This document shows positions 47,898 to 64,000 of a stretch of 64,000 nt of DNA, in pieces. The stretch comes from Atractiella rhizophila (Eukaryota). Both the position numbers and the translations under genes were made by a program. Under the pieces are notes generated by a model. It worked only from the letters and a program-made list of their open reading frames with translations. It had not been told where the DNA came from and did not search any database. The DNA is taken from positions 1 to 64,000 of the forward strand of contig MU271444.1 in assembly GCA_021432655.1 (NCBI GenBank), written 5' to 3'. The first letter of the stretch is position 1, and the number at the start of each line of letters is the position of its first letter.

Positions 47898-49692
47898 ATG
47901 GCGTCCTTTCTTCCTTATCACGAACCAAGCATACGAACAATCCTCATAAATGGGAGCTTTCTTCTGACCCTCAACTGGATCAATTATATCCTGGATTCCA
48001 CAGTCTACTGTGGCTTAATCGGGCAAATATTCATCGGGGTCGCCTGGGGAACACCAGCAGGTAAATGGCTCACAGAAGAAGCGGAACATACCATTGTTCA
48101 GTTGGGATATTTGGGCTTGATCCTTCTCGTTTACGAAGGTAACAATTCTATCTGCCATTGAAAGTCTGTAGCAGCTGACACTCAAGATGATTAAACTGAA
48201 AGGTGGCCTTTCGACGTCTTTTTCAGCTCTCAAAGCGAACTTGTTACTGTCTACAAGCGTGGCCCTGACGGGCATACTCATGCCCATCGCTCTCTCCTTC
48301 CTCCTCGTCCCCATCGCAAAAGCGACCCATCTTCAAGCCTTTGCCGCCGGAGCAGCTCTCTGTTCAACCAGTTTGGGGACCACCTTCACCGTTCTATCGA
48401 CTAGCGGACTAACCAACTCCCGTCTCGGAGTGGTGTTGACGAGCGCAGCCATGATGGATGACGTTGTTGGGCTGGTGATGGTGCAGGTCATTTCGAATCT
48501 CGGGAACTCCTCTTCGTCAGGTCGAGATGCTTTGGAAGCCACAGACGTGATTCGACCTATCGCGGTGTCGATCGGTTTTGCCGTGCTCATACCGTTAGCC
48601 TGCAGGTGGATCGTGAAGCCTTTGACAGAGTTCTTGAATCGAAAGAGAATGGAGAGGAGAGATGGTTTTGCCAATCGTATACTCAGGTTGGAACACACTC
48701 CGCTGATTCTGCACCTTCTTATTCTCCTCGCTTTTGTTGCTGCTGGATCTTACGCTGGGACGTCGAATCTCTTCACGGCTTATATCGCTGGAGCATGCAT
48801 TGGTTGGTGGGATACAGAAGTTGGCCATTGCACCACGTCTCCTCCTAGCTCCCAATCCACGATCGAGAACGAACCCGGAGCTCAAGCAATCAAAACCAGT
48901 AACAAAAGCGACCAGCTCGAGGATCGCAGCAAAAGGACGGGGCAAGCAATCTACTCTATATATCTCTCCCATGCGGTGGACCGGATTCTCAAACCCTTTT
49001 TCTTCGCGTCCATAGGATTTTCCATTCCTATTTCCCGCATGTTCGACGGCCCAGTCATCTGGCGAGGTATCGTCTATAGCATTCTCATGGCCTTCGCAAA
49101 GATCGTCTGTGGACTATGGCTTGTCAGGATGTCCATGCCACCAGCAATTCCTAGAATCCTGAGAAGACTAAATGGTGCTCTTCCAAAGATTTCTCACGAT
49201 TGGTGGCCGTGGAAGAAGAACAGTAACACGGCGAAATCTCGATCTAAACCTCTTAAACCGCCCGCCTCTCCCTCTCTCGCCATCACAAGGAAGAAGCGCA
49301 AAAGTGACGACTCTCCTAAACAACCTACCCAAGCAGAATCGTCGCCGGAAGTGGAAGTCTCTCCTCGTCCGAATGATCACACCTCTCCAGATCCTCCGAA
49401 ACCTCTTTCGTTGTACCCAGCAGGAATTCTAGGGTGTGCAATGGTCGCAAGAGGCGAAATAGGTTTCCTCATTTCCTCCCTCGCCGACAGCAGAGCCATC
49501 TTCTCAAATAGTGAAGGCGGAGATGGGGAGAGCGACCAAATTTTTCTCATCATTATTTGGGCTATTATGGTCTGCACGATCGTTGGTCCACTCAGTGTTG
49601 GACTTTTGGTGAAGAGAGTGAAAAGGTTGGATAGTGGACATCAAAATGGTGGTGGCGCGAATGGACCACTTGGAGTTTGGGGTGTCAAGTAA
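47898..49692 (+). CDS. Cation/H+ antiporter (Na+/H+ exchanger, CPA2-like)
   Basis: LPYHEP, LGYLGLILLVYEGG, GAALCSTSLGTT, SAAMMDDVVGL, PFFFASIGF and AMVARGEIGF; one intron. Confidence 0.92.
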
Positions 49693-51643
49693 AAGATCTA
49701 GAGTTGACACCACTCTCTCTTTCTGTACATATTTGACTGCATAATGATCATTTCCAAAATCGATCTGTGGAGCGCTCATCCTCATGCTGTTAGGAACCTC
49801 GAAGCGGAATGACTGATATGACACAAATGACTGGTCTTGTCCCACAATTAGAGCCACGAATACAGTTCTTTGGCCATAAAAGGGGGAGTCTCTGAAGAAG
49901 CAGGGCCAGCGAATTATCAAGCCAGCTTTGAACGCCTAAAATGACTCAAGACTCGAGCGAGAAGAAATCCTCGTCCCCATCGCAAAAGCGACCCATCTTC
50001 AAGCCTTTGCCGCCGGAGCAGCTCTCTGTTCAACCAGTTTGGGGACCACCTTCACCGTTCTAACGACGAGCGGACTAACCAACTCCCGTCTCGGAGTGGT
50101 GTTGACGAGCGCAGCCATGATGGATGACGTTGTTGGGCTGGTGATGGTCCAGGTCATTTCGAATCTCGGGAGCTCCTCTTCCTCTTCGTCAGGTCGAGAT
50201 GCCTTGGAAACCACAGATGTGATTCGACCTATCGTGGTGTCGATCGGTTTTGCCGTGCTCGTCCCTCTGGCCTGTCGGTGGATCGTGAAGCCTTTGACAG
50301 AGTTCTTGAATCGAGAGAGAATGGAGAGGAGAGATGGTTTTGCCAACCGTATCCTCTGCTTGGAACACACTCCGCTGATTCTGCACCTTCTTATTCTCCT
50401 CGCTTTTGTTGCTGCTGGATCTTACGCTGGGACGTCGAATCTCTTCACGGCTTATATCGCCGGAGCATGTATCAGTTGGTGGGATACAGAAGTTGGCCAT
50501 TGCACCACGTCTCCTCCTAGCTCCCAATCCACGATCGAGAACGAACCCGGAGCTCAAGCAATCAAAACCAGTAACAAAAGCGACCAACTTGAGGATCGCA
50601 GCAAAAGGACGGGGCAAGCAATCTACTCTATATATCTCTCCCATGCGGTGGACCGAATTCTCAAACCCTTTTTCTTCGCGTCCATTGGATTCTCTATTCC
50701 TATTTCCCGCATGTTCGACGGCCCAGTCATCTGGAGAGGTATCGTCTATAGCATTCTCATGGGCTTCGCAAAGATCGTCTGTGGACTATGGCTTGTCAGG
50801 ACGTCGATGCCTTCAGTCATTCCCAGGATCATGAGAAGACTAAAAGGTGCTCTTCCAAAGATTACTCACGATTGGTGGCCGTGGAAGAAGGATAACAACA
50901 AGTCGAAATCTCGATCTAAACCTTTTAAACCGCCCGCCTCTCCCTCTCTCGTCGTCACAAGGAAGAAGAGTAAAATTGACGCCTCTCCTAGACAACCTAC
51001 CCAAGCAGCAAAGTCGCCAGATGTCGAAGTCTCTCCTCGTCCAAACGATCACACCTCTCCAGATCCTCCGAAACCTCTTTCGCTGTACCCAGCAGGAATT
51101 TTAGGATGTGCAATGGTCGCAAGAGGCGAGATAGGTTTCCTCATTTCCTCCCTCGCCGACAGCAGAGGCATCTTCTCGAATAGTGACGGCGGAGATGGGG
51201 AGAGCGACCAAATTTTTCTCATCATTACTTGGGCTATTATGGTCTGCACGATCGTTGGTCCACTCAGCGTTGGACTTTTGGTGAAGAGAGTGAAACGGTT
51301 GGATGGTGGACATCAAAATGGTGGTGGTGGCGTGAATGGACCACTTGGAGTTTGGGGTGTCAAGTAAAAGATCTAGAGTTGACACCACTCTCTCTTTCTG
51401 TACATATTTTGACTGCATAATGATCATTTCCAAAATCGATCTGTGGAGCGCTCATCCTCATGCTGTTAGGAACCTCGAAGCGGAATGACTGATATGACAC
51501 AAATGACTGTTCTTGTCCCACAATTAGAGCCACGAATGCAGTTCTTTGGCCATAAAAGAGGGAGTCTCTGAAGAAGCAGGGCCAGCGAATTATCAAGCCA
51601 GCTTTGAACGCCTAAAATGACTCAAGATTCGAGCGAGAAGAAA
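48302..51643 (+). repeat. Tandem segmental duplication (1666-bp and 1676-bp units)
   Basis: 48302-49967 is repeated at 49968-51643 with scattered substitutions and indels of +6, +3 and +1 nt. Confidence 0.95.
49968..51367 (+). pseudogene. 5'-truncated second copy of the cation/H+ antiporter (frame still open)
   Basis: Lacks exon 1 and the first TM helices. It follows the duplicated start of the GFA gene (ATG 49941), which is out of frame with it. Confidence 0.75.
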
Positions 51644-55137: not shown

Positions 55138-56036
55138 ATGTCAAACAACTCTTTGTCACGACAGCCTTCCTCTCTATCCACCAACTCGTCATCAGCGCCG
55201 CCGAAACGGAAGGCAAAAAATCTTTTGAGGGAGTATTATGGCTTACAGCATCCTCAAAGTCCAGTCACTCCTAAGGCGTTCCAGCACGGGGAAGTGCAGG
55301 GAGACCCTTTAATGATCGGTACGTTATCTTCTCACACTTTACAGTACCGGGAGATGGTGTGACATTCTGCGTTCAAAGATACACCTGCCTTTGAACCACA
55401 AACTTATTTCAAGCATATTGCGGATACCGCTTCTGTACCCGAGCTGCTGAAGAAACATGAAGAGCTACTGTCAGGTGAGAAGCTTCTGCTGTTCAACGAG
55501 AGGTTCTGAATCGTGTCTAGAAATCCGAGAGCTTGATGGCGAGCGTCAATCCTTGGTTTACAACCACCATCATGAGCTCATCGACGGGTCGGATACAATC
55601 AAAAAGGTGTGAACCCTCCACTCCTCTTCCACGGACTAACACTGTTTCTCAGCTGAACAGTCGAGCCGACTCTCTTGATTCTACTTTAGACCGCCTCCGC
55701 ACTTCCTTCTCAACAATATCCCAACTCTCATCCACGCTCTCTCTCCCAGCACCAAAACCTCCTTCTCGTACCTTTTCACCCATCGAGCACCTTCCAACAC
55801 TGCTTTCTCTCCCCTTGGTTCTTCGAAACCTTCTCGAACAGTCCAAGGATAAGGAGGCACGGGAAGTGTGGGGGCGGTGGGAGCCGGTGCTGAAGGAATG
55901 GAAAGATGCCACGGTGGAAGGAGCGGAAGAGATAGAAAGAGAATGCAGGGATGTTTTCGGAGCTATGAGACTGAGAAGAGTCAGCATGGGGGATGAAGAA
56001 GGGAGGAGGAGCATTGAGAGCGCATCTGTGTACTGA
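55138..56036 (+). CDS. VPS51: GARP complex subunit Vps51
   Basis: LLREYYGL and EIRELDGERQSLVYNHHHELIDGSDTIKK match the Vps51/Vps67 domain. Confidence 0.88.
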
Positions 56037-57039: not shown

Positions 57040-58749
57040 CTAATACATTGGCCCAAACGTGAGACCCGGAGGAATTTGAATCGGTGGTTCAGTCGTCGAA
57101 GGAAGAGCACTGAGGAGGTCCGCGCTCGTATCTGTCAATGGATCGAAGCCAAATAGTGATAGACTTTCAGGCCAGCCATCCGTAATCGTCAAGGAGAGCC
57201 CAAGAGAGGCGGCAGCGTTAGCATCTTTTGAAAGGTTTACTGGACGTAGTCCTCCATCCGGATGATCAAAGGAGATTTCAGAAGAGGAGCGAGTGTGATC
57301 CGTGTGGTCGGTGTCTCCCTCTTCAGTATCGTTACCTTCCGACTGTATCCCATGAAATCATCAACAAAATTCTGCAGAGGAGGAAAGGAGAACAAACAGT
57401 GAAATCGAGAGAATCCTGTTCACCCGAGCGCAAATGTGCCCGTTTATGCCTGTACACGGCAGACCGTAAGCAATACTCAGTCAAAGGACAGAAGGGACAA
57501 ACCTCATAGCGTCCATCTGCAGCTTGCACAACCTCTTCAAAGGGTCGTTCTCCAGACTCGTCCTCAATTTACACGTCGCCAAATGCGCTCTGATGACAGC
57601 CGGACGTTTGGCTTTCGATCTAAACCGACAATTGGGTAGGCAAGACTGGTGTTTCAGCCATGCATTCGAGTTGCCTGTGGATGGGAACAGTTCGTGATCT
57701 TGCTCGAACACGCGGGTATAAGACCTTGGTGGGAACTACCAAACATAATCTTCACTACTCTATCAAGCGGCGAGGGAAGTGCTTACGGTGATGGTGTCAT
57801 TGTGCGGCCGTCCGACGGCCGCTCTCCCTCGTTCAGAATTGGCGGGATAGAGCTGCGAATCTTGTCTATCCCAAACATAATTTTCCTCTCCCTCGTTCAT
57901 CAAACTGAAACCTCCGGGGGTGGTGACGCCAGACGACGTCCCATTCGCCCCAGTCGTAAACTGAAGGCTGGTAGGTCTCCGTTGTCCAATCAATTCGTCA
58001 CCCGAGTCCAGCGACGTGAGACTACTCCGATCTCCGGCCATATACGGCGTATGATGTTCCGTCGTCCTACCGCGTTTCATCGTGTGGCCATTCGTCCGTG
58101 AGAGAACGCCTGTGGGCGGAAGGAAAGATTGGGAGGTTGATTGAGGAGAGAAAAAGTTCGGAAGGCCGTTCGATGCATCTGGAGGACTGGGAATGAACGA
58201 TGACTGCGGAGAAGTGGAGGCATAGGATGAAGAAGCGGTCCCATTGGCAGTGGGGTAGATCGTGGATCCGTACGTAGATTGAGAGGAAGAAACCTGCATT
58301 CCATTCGAAGAATACGGTGCTGGGGGTCCTTCCCATCCAACATATAGTCACTCCGCCCATTCTTCTCTGCACAAAAATGACGCAAGAAACTCACCGTTCT
58401 GCATCCCTGCCGTGAACCCCAGCTCCGGAATGGCCAAGTTATTCTGCTGCAACGCTTTATTCAACACGTCCCACGTCAAATACAACGTTCCAGGTGCCAA
58501 CGCGGTGAGATAAAGCCCGAGAGTGCCGTTGAAGCGAACCTGTGCTGGCACGACTTCATAAGTCGGGAAATTGGAAAACTGCTGCATCTGGTGATGGGGA
58601 TTCGAGCCGAACTGCTGTTGCGAGGGAGGGTGGGCATGATTTTGAGCGTGGGGAGGGAGAGACGGGAGGGGCTGTTGAGGGGGCGGCTGGAGGGGAGGAG
58701 GAAGGGTAGCGGTTGAAGTCGAAGCTTGCCAACTTGGAGGACCCTCCAT
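57040..58749 (-). CDS. Hypothetical protein with C2HC-like Zn-finger domain (paralogue A), putative nuclear regulator
   Basis: Five exons reconstructed in frame: P/Q-rich N-terminus, C-x3-C-x14-H-x3-C, basic RHKR patch and an acidic/hydrophobic C-terminus. Confidence 0.7.
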
Positions 58750-58763
58750 CCCATCGACGAGCA

Positions 58764-58800
58764 GAGTGCGAGTGCGGGTGCGGGTGCGAGTGCGATGTGC
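58764..58800. repeat. Imperfect (GAGTGC/GGGTGC)n hexamer microsatellite
   Basis: gagtgcgagtgcgggtgcgggtgcgagtgcgatgtgc lies just upstream of the ATG of paralogue A. Confidence 0.7.
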
Positions 58801-59372
58801 GATCGAATGCTCTGAACTTTTCCAGGGCACGATGGACTCGTTCGAAAAGAAGCAGGTGATCGTGTGGTCGGAGAGAGATGCCGCGGTCTGTCGTTCCAAT
58901 CGTTAGGGGAAGGAGAAGCTGGCAGTTATACGGTAGAGCCGTGGAAGTAACGATGGGGCTAGTCCAGACGTCCGCGTTAGCGATGGCGCAAACAGGGCTG
59001 GTCGTTGGATCGTTGGAGGTGGTCGTTGTGTTTGGAGTTGGAGTTCGTTGAAGAAGCTGGCTCTCGGCTTTTGCTCCTCGTGTCGAGCGTGGCAGTCATC
59101 AATTCAAATCAGAGTCAATGTTCCATCTGCCGATTCTTAATTCTAACCCTAATAGCCATACTTCTCTCGGACAGCCGTCCAACACCAGAGTTCCTCCTGT
59201 CAAGGTTGTGGCTTCTTATTGGCGCTCTTATCCAGTCTTATCCACGTTCAACAGTCAACAAGGAGCAAGAAGAAGCAATGGGAAGGCATGAAGATATGGT
59301 GTAGGATTGCATTGCTGGCATACAAAGAATAGAGGGATGGCGGCATAAACAGTCGAAGTGTACGAAGAGTAT

Positions 59373-60196
59373 CTAAGCCTTGTTCGAAATGATACCGTCG
59401 AACTGTCACAAGATTCAGCATCTCACCCCATGACTTGCTGAGGAAGAAAGACTCACTCGCTGTTTGAACCAAGCTTGAGAATCCTCCTTCTTCACCCTGT
59501 GGGAAGATCCAACTCGAGACTTGCACCTCTTTCGCCTCGCTACTCGGGCACCAGGACGTCCCATGCAGACATAGAAGTCCATTCCGAAGATACTATTCAC
59601 ATCCCACATCTTCACTCTCCGCCTTGACAACATCCAGAGCAAGTGCTTACCCAATAGCAGGATCATACTTGATGCCCAAATCGATATGCTCCTGAATGCC
59701 AAACCCAAAATTTCCAGTCTCGCTAAAGTTCCTCCTCTTCAACTCGTACTCCTTCACCTTCAAAGCCCTCTCCAAAATCTCCTCCGCTTTCGGTCCACGG
59801 ATGGTGACGTGAACCGCAATCTTTTCGTTACGACGGATACCGAACGATCGAATCGTGTATCGCGCCTTGGAAGTGACGGGGGATTGACCGGTGAGTTGTT
59901 CCAACACCTTGGATGCTCGTGTTAGACGATCTCCAGACTCGCCAACCGAAATGTCTGTCATTGAAGAGAACATGGATTAGAATGAGGGAGATGCAGACGA
60001 AAATGCAGGAGACGGACTGATGACGAGCTTCTCGATGCGGAGCTCCCTCTGTCAATATCAGAATCGTCAGTTGTTGTCCTTATGTGTGAGGAGGAACGCT
60101 CACGTTAGGATTGACGGATTTCTTTTCGTCAGCCTATCCCAATCCATCCACCATCACTCCCATGCACCTCTGGGAGCATAAAAAGGGACGAACCAT
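59373..60196 (-). CDS. RPL11: 60S ribosomal protein L11 (uL5)
   Basis: [57 protein letters not shown] and IFGMDFY; ATG-only first exon. Confidence 0.97.
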
Positions 60197-60273
60197 TGTA
60201 TGAGTCCACCTTTCCCTTCCTTACCTCAAGTCTGTCGTTTGGCGTGTCAAGTGGAAAATACGCGAGCCTCGTC

Positions 60274-60302
60274 TTAGGGTTGTCAGGTTACAAGTTAGGG
60301 TT
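60274..60302. promoter_or_regulatory. Two TTAGGGTT (telobox/Tbf1-like) sites in the 203-bp RPL11/SmB bidirectional promoter
   Basis: TTAGGGTT at 60274-60281 and 60295-60302, 21 bp apart. Confidence 0.5.
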
Positions 60303-60399
60303 CAGCGGGCGGATCTCACCCGCACTTTATTCGCCACCTATTCTTCATTCTCCAAACGGACTTTTTTGGGAGCTCGTTTCAAGCAGCAGGCGCACCAAA

Positions 60400-61183
60400 A
60401 TGGTGAGTCTCTTTCATCGGTAGCGCGTACGGGAGCTGAGGAGAGGGATAGTCTACGAAAAAAGGGGGGAAATTGATGGGCCTCATCCATTATCGCGTTC
60501 GCGTGACGCTGAACGACTCTCGGACGCTGATTGGACAGCTGCTCGCCTTCGACAAGCACATGAACTTGGTGTTGGCGGAGTGTGAAGACTTTAGGACGAT
60601 CAAGATGAAGAAGAAGAAGGATGCGGGAGGTGCTGGCGTCGGTGGAATGGGGGAGAAGATGGTGGTCGATGGAGAGGAGGGCAGTAATAGGTTGCAGGAG
60701 ATTAAGAGGTCGTTGGGATTGACGATCCTTAGAGGAGAGACTATCGTTTCTATCTCTGTGGAAAGCCCTCCGCCTGTAGTTGACGAGAGCAAGCAGCCGA
60801 ATGTTCGTCCTCTCTTTCTTCTCTAAAGGGTGTCATCTCATTCTCCATTCTTCTTTGTAATTAGATCCTTCCTGGACCTGGCGTTGGTCGTGCGGTAGGA
60901 CGTGGAGTGGGGCTAGCACCACCACGTACGTCTCCTCTCTCTGTCATGGTATTTTAGCGGGAATGATGCGCGGTGGTCCGATGCCATTCCCCCCTCGTCC
61001 TCCAGGCGCACCAGGCCTTCCTCCGCCCCCACCTGGGATGTTACCAGGCATGATGCCTCCTCCTGGGTTCTCTGGACCACCACCTGGGTTTGTTCATCCC
61101 TTACCATCTTTCCTTTCTTTGCTTGTCTGTGTGAGAAGGCTGATGCTTGTTGAGATAGGTTCATGCCTCCACCGCCGCGATAA
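60400..61183 (+). CDS. SMB1: Small nuclear ribonucleoprotein SmB
   Basis: YRVRVTLNDSRTLIGQLLAFDKHMNLVLAECEDFR, KRSLGLTILRGETIVSISVESPPP and an RG/Pro-rich tail. Confidence 0.95.
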
Positions 61184-61378
61184 TCGAGGATCGTTTTAAG
61201 CGTGGCATTGCAAGATGGTTGGATGATAGGATGAGAAGACGATATCGATTGGTGAGGAAGGTGAAAGGGCTGAAAAGTCAAAAGTGATACATGTTACGTC
61301 GTTTCTTTGCATCCAATCTGTTGTTCTCTTTCCACTCTGCTCCACGCTTCCTCGCTTCCATGCACCACACTCTTCATT

Positions 61379-61995
61379 CTACGAAATCCGATCCTCGCTC
61401 TCCAGCTTTTTAGCCCTACTCTCAGCAATCAATCCCACCTCCCTCACCGCTCGCTCCACCTCTCCCTTCCACCTCTCGCTCTCAACCTCAAACCTCTCCT
61501 TCCCTTTCCCCTCCTCCCTCAACTCAGCTTCCCACTCCTTGATCCTAGATTCGAGTTCGGAAGCGATGGCAGAACGAGAGCGCGAATTGACAAAGGTGAT
61601 GTACCGTAACCCGGGAAAGAGATCCTCGTATCTGGCATTCAAGACCTGCCATCTTCCCTTCAGTTTTACATCAAACTAAATTAGACATGAATATGGACCT
61701 TCAATGTCTCCACCACTTCGGGAGGACATGCTTCACCGCCTTCTCCGCGCGTTTGCTCCCCTTTCGACGCCGCACTTAGATGTTGGACGGGAGCTCCGAT
61801 GCGTGGATGGGAGTGGAGGAAGGAGGCGCGGAGGGGGAGAGGCCAGGATTGGATGATGGTGATGGAGGTGGGGACGAGGGTTGTGGGTTTGTATGTTGTG
61901 TTGGGTGGGAGGGAGGGGATGAGGTGGGTGCTGAGGAGGGGGTGGTTTTCGAAGAGCAGGGGGAGGAGGATGGCTGGGTTGGTTGGGTAGGACAT
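61379..61995 (-). CDS. OHCU decarboxylase family protein
   Basis: LLFE, FLHSHPRIG, LSAASKGEQ, LNARYEDLFPGLRYITFVN and EVGLIAESR. Confidence 0.85.
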
Positions 61996-62194
61996 GGTTG
62001 TACTTGTGCTACCTTGTGGACTTATGTTATTGCAATATCTATTCCACAAGCTAAGATGCACTTGTTACTGAGCATCCATATTTCAGGCCAGCTAGCTGAT
62101 TGATGGATTGCTGGAGAAGGGGTCAGGTCATCAACAGACATCAAGAGAAGGACCAACGTCAGCAACAAGGCCAACAACGAACGTTGAGTCTGCG

Positions 62195-63974
62195 ATGTCC
62201 ATCTCTCGCCCTCCCTCCGCTTCAACGCCGTACGTCCACCGCACCCTCCTCCAGCCTCAGCCACAGCCGAGCGAGGACGACCAGCACCACGACGACGTCT
62301 CCGTCTCAGGCGACGGCATACACCTCGGAGCGAACGTCCTCAAGTGGGACCAGCTCGCTGAGGTCCTCGTGTCTCAGTCGACCGCTGGTCTTTTGCCGAG
62401 TGGACATGTCCTCGGATTGGCTGTCGCTTGCTTACGTGCGTCTACTCTTATTATTTTTCTGTGTTCTATGGATTGGGATTGAATGGATCCTTGGATGTAG
62501 ATACGGCAAATGCATGGGCTAATGGAAGTCCTCCCGAACACGCATCTTCTTCAGCTCTTCAACCCACCACCTCTCATCGTCGATTACATCCCATCCCCAC
62601 ACGTATAACTCAACCCTCTCCACCCACCTCCCTACCCGCCACACCCTCAGGACCACCAGGACCAGCCACAACAACAACGACAACACACACAGCACCACCA
62701 ACCCACCCACCCTCCGTTCCCTACGGCGTCAAATCCGAAGGCTCAGCCTCCGACCTCCACTGCACCCTCTCCACCGACACCCTCGTCATCTACTGGGACC
62801 ACCGCCTGCTCCGACCCGTGAACTCGCCGAGCGCGATAGTGTATCCGAGCGGGGCGACGGCGGCCGAAGAGGAGTTTGAGAGGATCGAGTTTGGCCCGAG
62901 GAGTCATTGGAAGGTCGTCAGAGCCGGAATCGAGGTCTGGCCGTGGGATGGGATTGGGCCGGGTAACGATTGGCTGCGTGGTCAGGTGTGTCTTTTCTCT
63001 CCTCTCCCTTTTTCTTTTTTTTTGAATAAAAGATCGACGATTGTTGATGGATTGGTGATGTAGCTCGTCAATTCGCCAGAGTGTAGATGTGGAGTGTTCC
63101 ACTTCAGACACTCTAATTCGGGTTTCAAGAGACCAGCGGTCATACGAGAGCATCTCGCCTCTTGTTCGACGATGGAAGCCGTACCGGAAGGTTTGAGGCG
63201 ACTCTGCGTGTTGCAGAGGGATGCCGAGAAGATGGGAACGAAGAGGAAGAGGGAGGAAGCGAGGAAAGAAGGCGATATGGGGAAATTGGTTCGTCCTCCC
63301 CACCTCACTTCATATCCCTTTCGTCGACGTTGATTTTGGATTTTTGGATGTGGCATGGCGAATAGAAGAGAGCCAGATACGTGCCCAATCATTCGGCTTC
63401 GAGGACAGGATTGGAGATGGTCGAAGGAGGGAGGTCAGACTCGAACGGCGTCGGTGGAGGGATCGAATCCGGACCTACCTCTCTCGCTTCTGGATCAGGA
63501 TCTACAGCTATGACAGCAGGAGGAGGAGGAGGGAGATCAAACTTCTCAGCCGGCCTCTCCTCTCTCGCGATGGGAGCAACGATGGACCTCGACCCCGACA
63601 CGGATGGACGGGACATACCCATCGAAGTCGAGCCTGACTCGCCAGACGGAAACACCCCTACTACCGGCGGCGGTCTGCGCGCACGTGGAAGTGGAAGCGG
63701 TGGTGGAGGAGGAGGGACGAGGGAGATGGAAGAGCTGAGGGGGAGGAATATCGATGAGGATGTGCTTGATCCGGAAGTCGTTGGGCGGGCGGTCAGGAAT
63801 TCTAATTCCACTGGAACTCCCGCGTCGGGACATCGCAATGGGGGTACAGGTGGGAATGGGAATGGTACGGTGGGGACGAGTGAGGAGAGAGAGAGGATGG
63901 GGGAGGGGAAGTGGAGGGATGGTGATAGAATCGACATGTTTGTCAGGCGGGAACATCAGGATTTCGATTCATGA
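62195..63974 (+). CDS. Hypothetical protein with C2HC-like Zn-finger domain (paralogue B), putative nuclear regulator
   Basis: Four exons in frame: C-x-C-x20-H-x3-C, bipartite-like basic motif KRKR...KRAR and a Gly-rich acidic tail. Shares motifs with 57040..58749. Confidence 0.7.
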
Positions 63975-64000
63975 TTTCGGTGAATTCTGTCAGAATAAAT

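Follow-up and report, generated by a model that had tools for sequence, protein, structure and literature searches.

Two divergent genes of Atractiella rhizophila carry an apparently unnamed Cys/Cys/His/Cys domain of candidate Pucciniomycotina regulators

Introduction

Proteins of the ZAD-, SCAN- and BTB-finger groups are regulators with an N-terminal dimerisation module. The BED finger has the signature Cx2CxnHx3-5[H/C] together with Trp and Phe (PMC3365051), and the homeodomain (HD) locus of Rhodotorula is described as consisting mostly of HD1 and HD2 alone, with alleles that differ at their N-termini (10.1101/2025.09.11.675505). Fungal transcription-factor catalogues, in turn, are built from about 80 known families (PMC5415576). 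Here we analyse two genes, A and B, that lie in a stretch of 64,000 nucleotides from the root-associated fungus Atractiella rhizophila (contig MU271444.1, positions 1 to 64,000, hereafter the window) and share a domain with a Cys/Cys/His/Cys core. An earlier note on this stretch had proposed that they form a linked heterodimeric pair of zinc-binding regulators. Coordinates are those of the window and are given in Table 1; the contigs of this genome (G000) are denoted by C numbers and its loci by L numbers.

Results

A conserved Cys/Cys/His/Cys domain

The domain comprises about 110 amino acids (aa) and its signature consists of an invariant Q-x-C, a further Cys, KRP-x2-IR-x-H-x3-C and DPL-x2-LC. 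Across 78 database domains the constant residues, in the numbering of A, are F300, P317, N323, W325, Q329, C331, C335, F337, K342, R343, P344, I347, R348, H350, C354, D363, P364, L365, L368 and C369. The ligand positions C331, C335, H350 and C354 are conserved in 78/78, 72/77, 75/77 and 73/75 of the domains, respectively, and conservation extends to Q329 (78/78), K342 (66/78), P344 (73/76), R348 (64/78) and the aromatic residues W325 (61/77) and F300 (66/70). The strict Cys/Cys/His/Cys pattern is found in 68 of the 78 domains, the other ten being truncated models or having a longer Cys spacing. The four Cys/His ligands used as a general mark of zinc-binding domains are present, and given that the fifth Cys is replaced by Ser in three intact paralogues, Cys/Cys/His/Cys is the constant ligand set. 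The Cys pair is spaced as C-x3-C in 50 of 75 domains, as C-x-C in 19 and as C-x2-C in one, and the spacer from Cys to His spans 14-16 or 21-44 residues (12 residues in 1/75). The region of the putative zinc site is basic, with 15 Lys plus Arg against 3 Asp plus Glu in A and 14 against 7 in B, and the most conserved surface residues are the Lys, Arg and Arg of the zinc helix. Judging from these residues, the domain is probably zinc-binding.

The AlphaFold2 model obtained for the domain of a single-exon paralogue (L043) is confident (pLDDT 97.6, pTM 0.88). Its first half is rich in beta structure and is followed by a short helix bearing the Trp; the Cys pair then lies in a loop, the His and the Cys are carried by a helix starting at KRP, and one last helix follows. 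A fold search with this model, of the kind suggested in the earlier note, gave no structural match and retrieved no BED structure, which should be regarded as an absence of matches and not as proof of a new fold. The domain also lacked a match among Pfam, NCBIfam and PDB sequences, and a Pfam scan that included PF02892 was negative both for 24 rows (E<=1) and for 52 proteins (E<=0.1). We found no published description of the domain in the literature searched, supplements not covered, and the family appears to be unnamed. The earlier view of an unassigned domain with a Cys/His core was thus borne out.

Comparison with described domains

Like this family, the BED finger (PF02892) has a Cys pair, a variable spacer, a His-x3-Cys/His part and conserved aromatic residues on the N-terminal side of that pair, and occurs in stand-alone factors with lineage expansions. 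Language-model neighbours of the domain include BED-finger clusters (scores 0.76-0.83), which we treat as a lead only. The differences are several: the H-x3-C part is shared, whereas the Cx2C of BED is seen in only one of 75 domains; W325 and F300 are conserved, but in an order and spacing unlike those of BED and with no profile match to support their equivalence; and a beta-rich part of about 60 aa and a further helix are fused to the zinc site. Membership of BED is not supported, with no hit over the PF02892 cut-off, a Cys pair that departs from Cx2C and an hhalign probability of 0.1% against a BED-like peptide of the genome. The three PF02892 matches in this genome are all away from the family loci; two short BED-like Cys2-His2 frames (L077 and L078, on C109 and C2), 67% identical to each other, score above the cut-off.

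Classical C2H2 and C2HC fingers share with the family a hydrophobic residue three before the His, an H-x3-C on a helix and a basic helix start. However, the model has no beta-hairpin at the Cys pair, and nearly all members carry one domain per protein. The classical C2H2 and zf-C2HC_2 (PF13913) families were rejected on account of the rarity of the 12-residue spacer of their C-x2-4-C-x12-H pattern, the lack of a Pfam hit and an hhalign probability of 0.7% against the C2HC peptide of the genome. The ZAD-, SCAN- and BTB-finger proteins resemble the family in having a dimer module, a disordered linker and a zinc-binding domain and in their lineage-specific expansion, and gave no sequence or fold match to either module in the searches run.

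Genes A and B and the age of their split

Genes A and B are real, spliced genes. Their frames are open, the introns are GT..AG, the peptides quoted in the earlier note are present, and six of the seven predicted introns (all four of A and introns 1 and 2 of B) appear as joints in RNA contigs and are absent from the DNA run; intron 3 of B was not seen among 15 joints listed of 24. Expression of the two genes is seen in the same runs. The other haplotype of the region lies on C95 (L040) and is 97.8% identical. Between the haplotype contigs gene A differs at 37 synonymous codons and one non-synonymous codon, which shows that it is functional and subject to purifying selection, and exons 1-3 of B differ at two synonymous and no non-synonymous codons. 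The C95 haplotype lacks one base at 63534, in the last exon of B, which alters and shortens the low-complexity tail; this is either an allele or an assembly error. In run X3 only, the summed contig depth, which is no measure of expression, reaches 440,000-540,000 over the last exons of B (63127-64000), with backward joints, compared with about 185 over A and up to 7,600 over RPL11; runs X4 and X8 show no such depth or backward joints there.

The relationship between A and B is evident at the protein level, with a local score of 134 (mean 41 and maximum 67 in 1000 shuffles) and 45 identities in 106 aligned columns of the domain. In line with the earlier note, there is no similarity at the DNA level (best blastn E 0.38) and the intron within the domain differs in position; it is placed before FPP in A and after WLRGQ in B. 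In a tree of 70 domains, 18 B-type rows stand apart from 52 A-type rows (SH-aLRT 96); a more careful tree of 75 rows gives a smaller B group with less firm support (86/82). Constraining A and B together was rejected (p-AU 0.019), so that they fall on opposite sides of the deepest split of the family and are not sisters. The trees and this test support the old duplication that had been suggested.

Family members in other organisms

A search of 1.84 billion representatives with a profile of 24 exon-level rows retrieved 81 clusters at E<=0.001. Fourteen of the proteins are named, three from Atractiella rhizophila, two from Phenoliferia, seven from Rhodosporidiobolus and one each from Rhodotorula and Sporobolomyces, all of which we take to belong to Pucciniomycotina. 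The three Atractiella rhizophila proteins are at least 98% identical to loci of this genome over the matched exons. All five of the representatives tested (P0037, P0046, P0065, P0073 and P0078) are not encoded in this genome, which means that other organisms own B-type genes and expansions. The best match of the red-yeast protein P0013 is gene A (E 5e-20) by a wide gap over the next locus (3e-5), which makes A, by sequence, the likely orthologue of a conserved A-type gene of red yeasts. Of the proposal of an undescribed lineage-specific family, the unassigned status stands, but membership extends beyond a single lineage to at least two classes of Pucciniomycotina.

N-terminal module, linkers and tails

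Apart from the domain, an N-terminal motif had been considered common to A and B. A direct comparison of the two was not significant (score 30, equalled or bettered by 373 of 1000 shuffles), whereas each gene scored against nine relatives with an ungapped profile was not reached by any of 300 shuffles. With a hidden Markov model (HMM) built from relatives outside the window, the module of B obtained 17 bits (best of 500 shuffles 2.4); that of A was not detected by the first-round HMM. The module, of about 60 aa, is modelled with three strands and three helices (pLDDT 84). For the paralogue L047 a homodimer is predicted with a score of 0.54, against 0.02 for the best of three controls; the runs agree on 95% or more of the contacts, with a pLDDT of 76 or higher, and the last helix of one chain is packed on the sheet of the other. 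Of the solved pairs, 21 of 30 from microbes and 17 of 29 from eukaryotes attained the mark set for this score, as against 0 of 23 and 0 of 30 single chains, respectively. A beta-meander followed by a helix, and a predicted dimer with an exchanged helix, recall the PC4-, PUR- and COMM-type dimers; at least 10 of the 30 weak structural matches listed for the module are PC4, Sub1, Pur-alpha or COMMD chains.

The low-complexity linkers (56-59% Ser, Thr, Pro, Gly and Gln) and the basic patches resembling nuclear localisation signals (NLS) directly after the domain were found in both proteins, as previously noted. The motifs W-L-x-x-Y-G-L and S-F-L occur in the tails of 15 and 19 of 20 A-type proteins, respectively. 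On C8 and C851 an N-module (L014:4828-5073 and L015:4684-4830) lies in head-to-head orientation to a family gene, with no Cys/His domain detectable downstream of it; the gene next to it resembles a UBX/SEP protein by eye.

Proposed function

We propose that the Pucciniomycotina family to which A and B belong consists of regulators that act as dimers, depend on zinc and bind specific DNA sequences, a reading to which we give a probability of about 55%. The two proteins would act in the nucleus, with one zinc held by C331, C335, H350 and C354, and the helix that starts at K-R-P would contact DNA; R343, seven residues before the His, presumably takes the place of the base-reading -1 residue of classical fingers. 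Dimerisation through the N-module, with the predicted exchange of the last helix between chains, would present two Cys/Cys/His/Cys domains. The basic patches may drive nuclear import, and the hydrophobic-acidic tail motifs of the A-type proteins may recruit co-regulators. B would represent a separate subfamily, as old as the A-type, and the dozens of short domain-only copies would have arisen later in Atractiella rhizophila by tandem and dispersed DNA duplication. Of the earlier idea of zinc-binding nucleic-acid or chromatin regulators, the conserved core and the regulator-like architecture were retained and the linked pair was not.

A less probable alternative, although the best of the competing ones, is that the domain is a zinc-stabilised adaptor for proteins, chromatin or RNA, in which case the proteins would be nuclear scaffolds or co-regulators. 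Against it count the negligible match to a C2HC finger, the position of the most conserved surface residues on the zinc helix, and an overall layout that is that of transcription factors, in which a dimer module, a disordered linker, a basic domain and an acidic tail follow one another.

The DNA-binding reading would extend, rather doubtfully, to a new class restricted to Pucciniomycotina with a fold outside the PDB, in which the long members mix through the helix-swapped N-module, about 40 domain-only mini-paralogues act as fast-evolving competitors that retune the targets of a conserved factor, and the neighbourhood of A and B is the trace of the founding duplication. Zinc-binding regulators that carry a dimer module and have expanded in a lineage, the likely kind here, are already familiar. 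Even so, if the DNA-binding reading is true, this would be a new DNA-binding domain, perhaps with a new fold. A domain undetected by the catalogued families would be invisible in every regulatory survey of Pucciniomycotina, and here the public annotation conceals it, as model P0003 of gene B ends within intron 2 and lacks the zinc site. The presence of A-type relatives in the red yeasts Rhodotorula, Rhodosporidiobolus and Sporobolomyces makes the family open to direct tests.

Expansion in the genome

The third exon of gene A alone gave 47 matches in this genome, and pooled searches place the domain at no fewer than 61 sites on 46 contigs, a lower bound that includes haplotype duplicates. We estimate that roughly 40-45 distinct loci remain after removing the obvious ones. 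Counted among the 61 is a divergent relative on C83 and C568 (L069:4038-4619 and L070:3980-4528), which has the first half of the domain and no KRP motif. Local clustering is frequent: tandem pairs or triplets occur on C20, C40, C44, C82, C93 and C994, and close relatives form a divergent pair on C406/C717. Only about seven long members with the N-module were seen.

Such dispersal, often as short domain-only models, might suggest that the domain is transposon-derived or transposon-carried, as BED fingers are by hAT elements, with most copies being mobile-element debris. Some dispersed copies have 0.5-2 kb of DNA in common around them, and two of the 36 long frames neighbouring copies fit this idea, one copy lying near a tyrosine recombinase and another near a reverse transcriptase. 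We consider it improbable, since the copies retain introns and what they share is mostly the gene itself, no terminal inverted repeats were found at the ends of eight regions and no DDE transposase among the 36 frames (flanks of 2-4 kb in both cases), no transposase domain was found in a scan of 52 database relatives, and A is conserved with the red yeasts under purifying selection.

Neighbourhood and the linked-pair question

The start codons of A and B are 3,446 nt apart and the genes face away from each other around RPL11, SmB and OHCU decarboxylase, in agreement with the earlier description; the names RPL11 and SmB were assigned from Pfam families and sequence, that of SmB from its tail. 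One RNA contig (61815-62501) bears both the minus-strand intron 62111-62157 and intron 1 of B on the plus strand, which indicates that the 5' ends of OHCU decarboxylase and B overlap or abut.

Table 1. Features of the A-B region in window coordinates.
Feature	Position	Strand	Remarks
Gene A	57040..58749	minus	5 exons, 494 aa
Gene A exons	58749-58395, 58328-57787, 57735-57503, 57449-57398, 57342-57040	minus	open frame, GT..AG introns
Gene A N-terminal module	58423..58554	minus	aa 66-109; degenerate: strands and first helix, last helix not recognisable
Gene A Cys/Cys/His/Cys domain	57508..57897	minus	aa 263-375; C331, C335, H350, C354, plus C369; split by intron 57736-57786
Gene B	62195..63974	plus	4 exons, 519 aa; B-type member, nearest relatives on contig C20
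Gene B exons	62195-62435, 62501-62985, 63064-63288, 63366-63974	plus	open frame, GT..AG introns
Gene B N-terminal module	62294..62434	plus	aa 34-80; last helix included
Gene B Cys/Cys/His/Cys domain	62779..63228	plus	aa 174-297; split by intron 62986-63063
Basic patches (KRKR, KLKRAR), NLS-like	63241..63380	plus	directly after the B domain; span takes in intron 3
RPL11, L5-family ribosomal protein	59279..60330	minus	PF00281/PF00673; RNA joints, poly(A) end 59279; ends approximate
SmB-like LSM-domain protein	60399..61183	plus	PF01423; Pro/Gly/Met tail; RNA joints
OHCU decarboxylase	61379..62160	minus	PF09349; RNA joint; 5'-region intron 62111-62157; head to head with B; 5' end approximate

A and B resemble the HD1/HD2 mating genes in being divergent paralogous regulators with an N-terminal dimerisation region, and differ from them in the three genes that separate them, in the lack of allelic divergence and, within the flanks covered, of a conserved neighbourhood, and in the lack of a homeodomain. 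Neither a homeodomain nor a pheromone-pathway family was found among 71 long frames of the window, short exons not being scanned. Nine metagenome A-type loci, about six of them distinct, showed no RPL11, SmB, OHCU decarboxylase, downstream neighbour or second domain, within upstream flanks of 0-4.5 kb, which allow a fair test of the intervening genes at about five loci and a marginal one of B.

That A and B are a linked divergent pair acting as an obligate heterodimer is very unlikely: both have an N-module of a type predicted to dimerise in a paralogue, both are expressed together, and with so few long members two within 6 kb would not be expected by chance (about 1%, a rough estimate), but three housekeeping genes lie between them, the haplotypes differ by one residue in A and none in exons 1-3 of B, A lacks the last N-module helix that forms a large part of the predicted interface, the two are not sisters, and the domain recurs at dozens of further sites across the genome, so that they are not a private pair. 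The dispersed copies without linkage that the earlier note had named as counting against its model were thus largely found, within the short flanks of the metagenome loci, and the comparison of haplotypes revealed no allelic divergence. The linked-pair idea, which had made A and B look stranger, is not upheld; their adjacency looks incidental and would represent no functional unit, and their neighbourhood may date from the old duplication or be due to chance.

Elsewhere in the window, the gene just downstream of A (55139-56036) resembles Vps51 by eye, with no Pfam hit for the single exon that was scanned. Tandemly duplicated frames of a sodium/hydrogen exchanger are found at 48172-51364, and part of a chloride-channel-like gene is duplicated beyond B on the other haplotype (L040:1-2400); both may be recent duplications or assembly artefacts.

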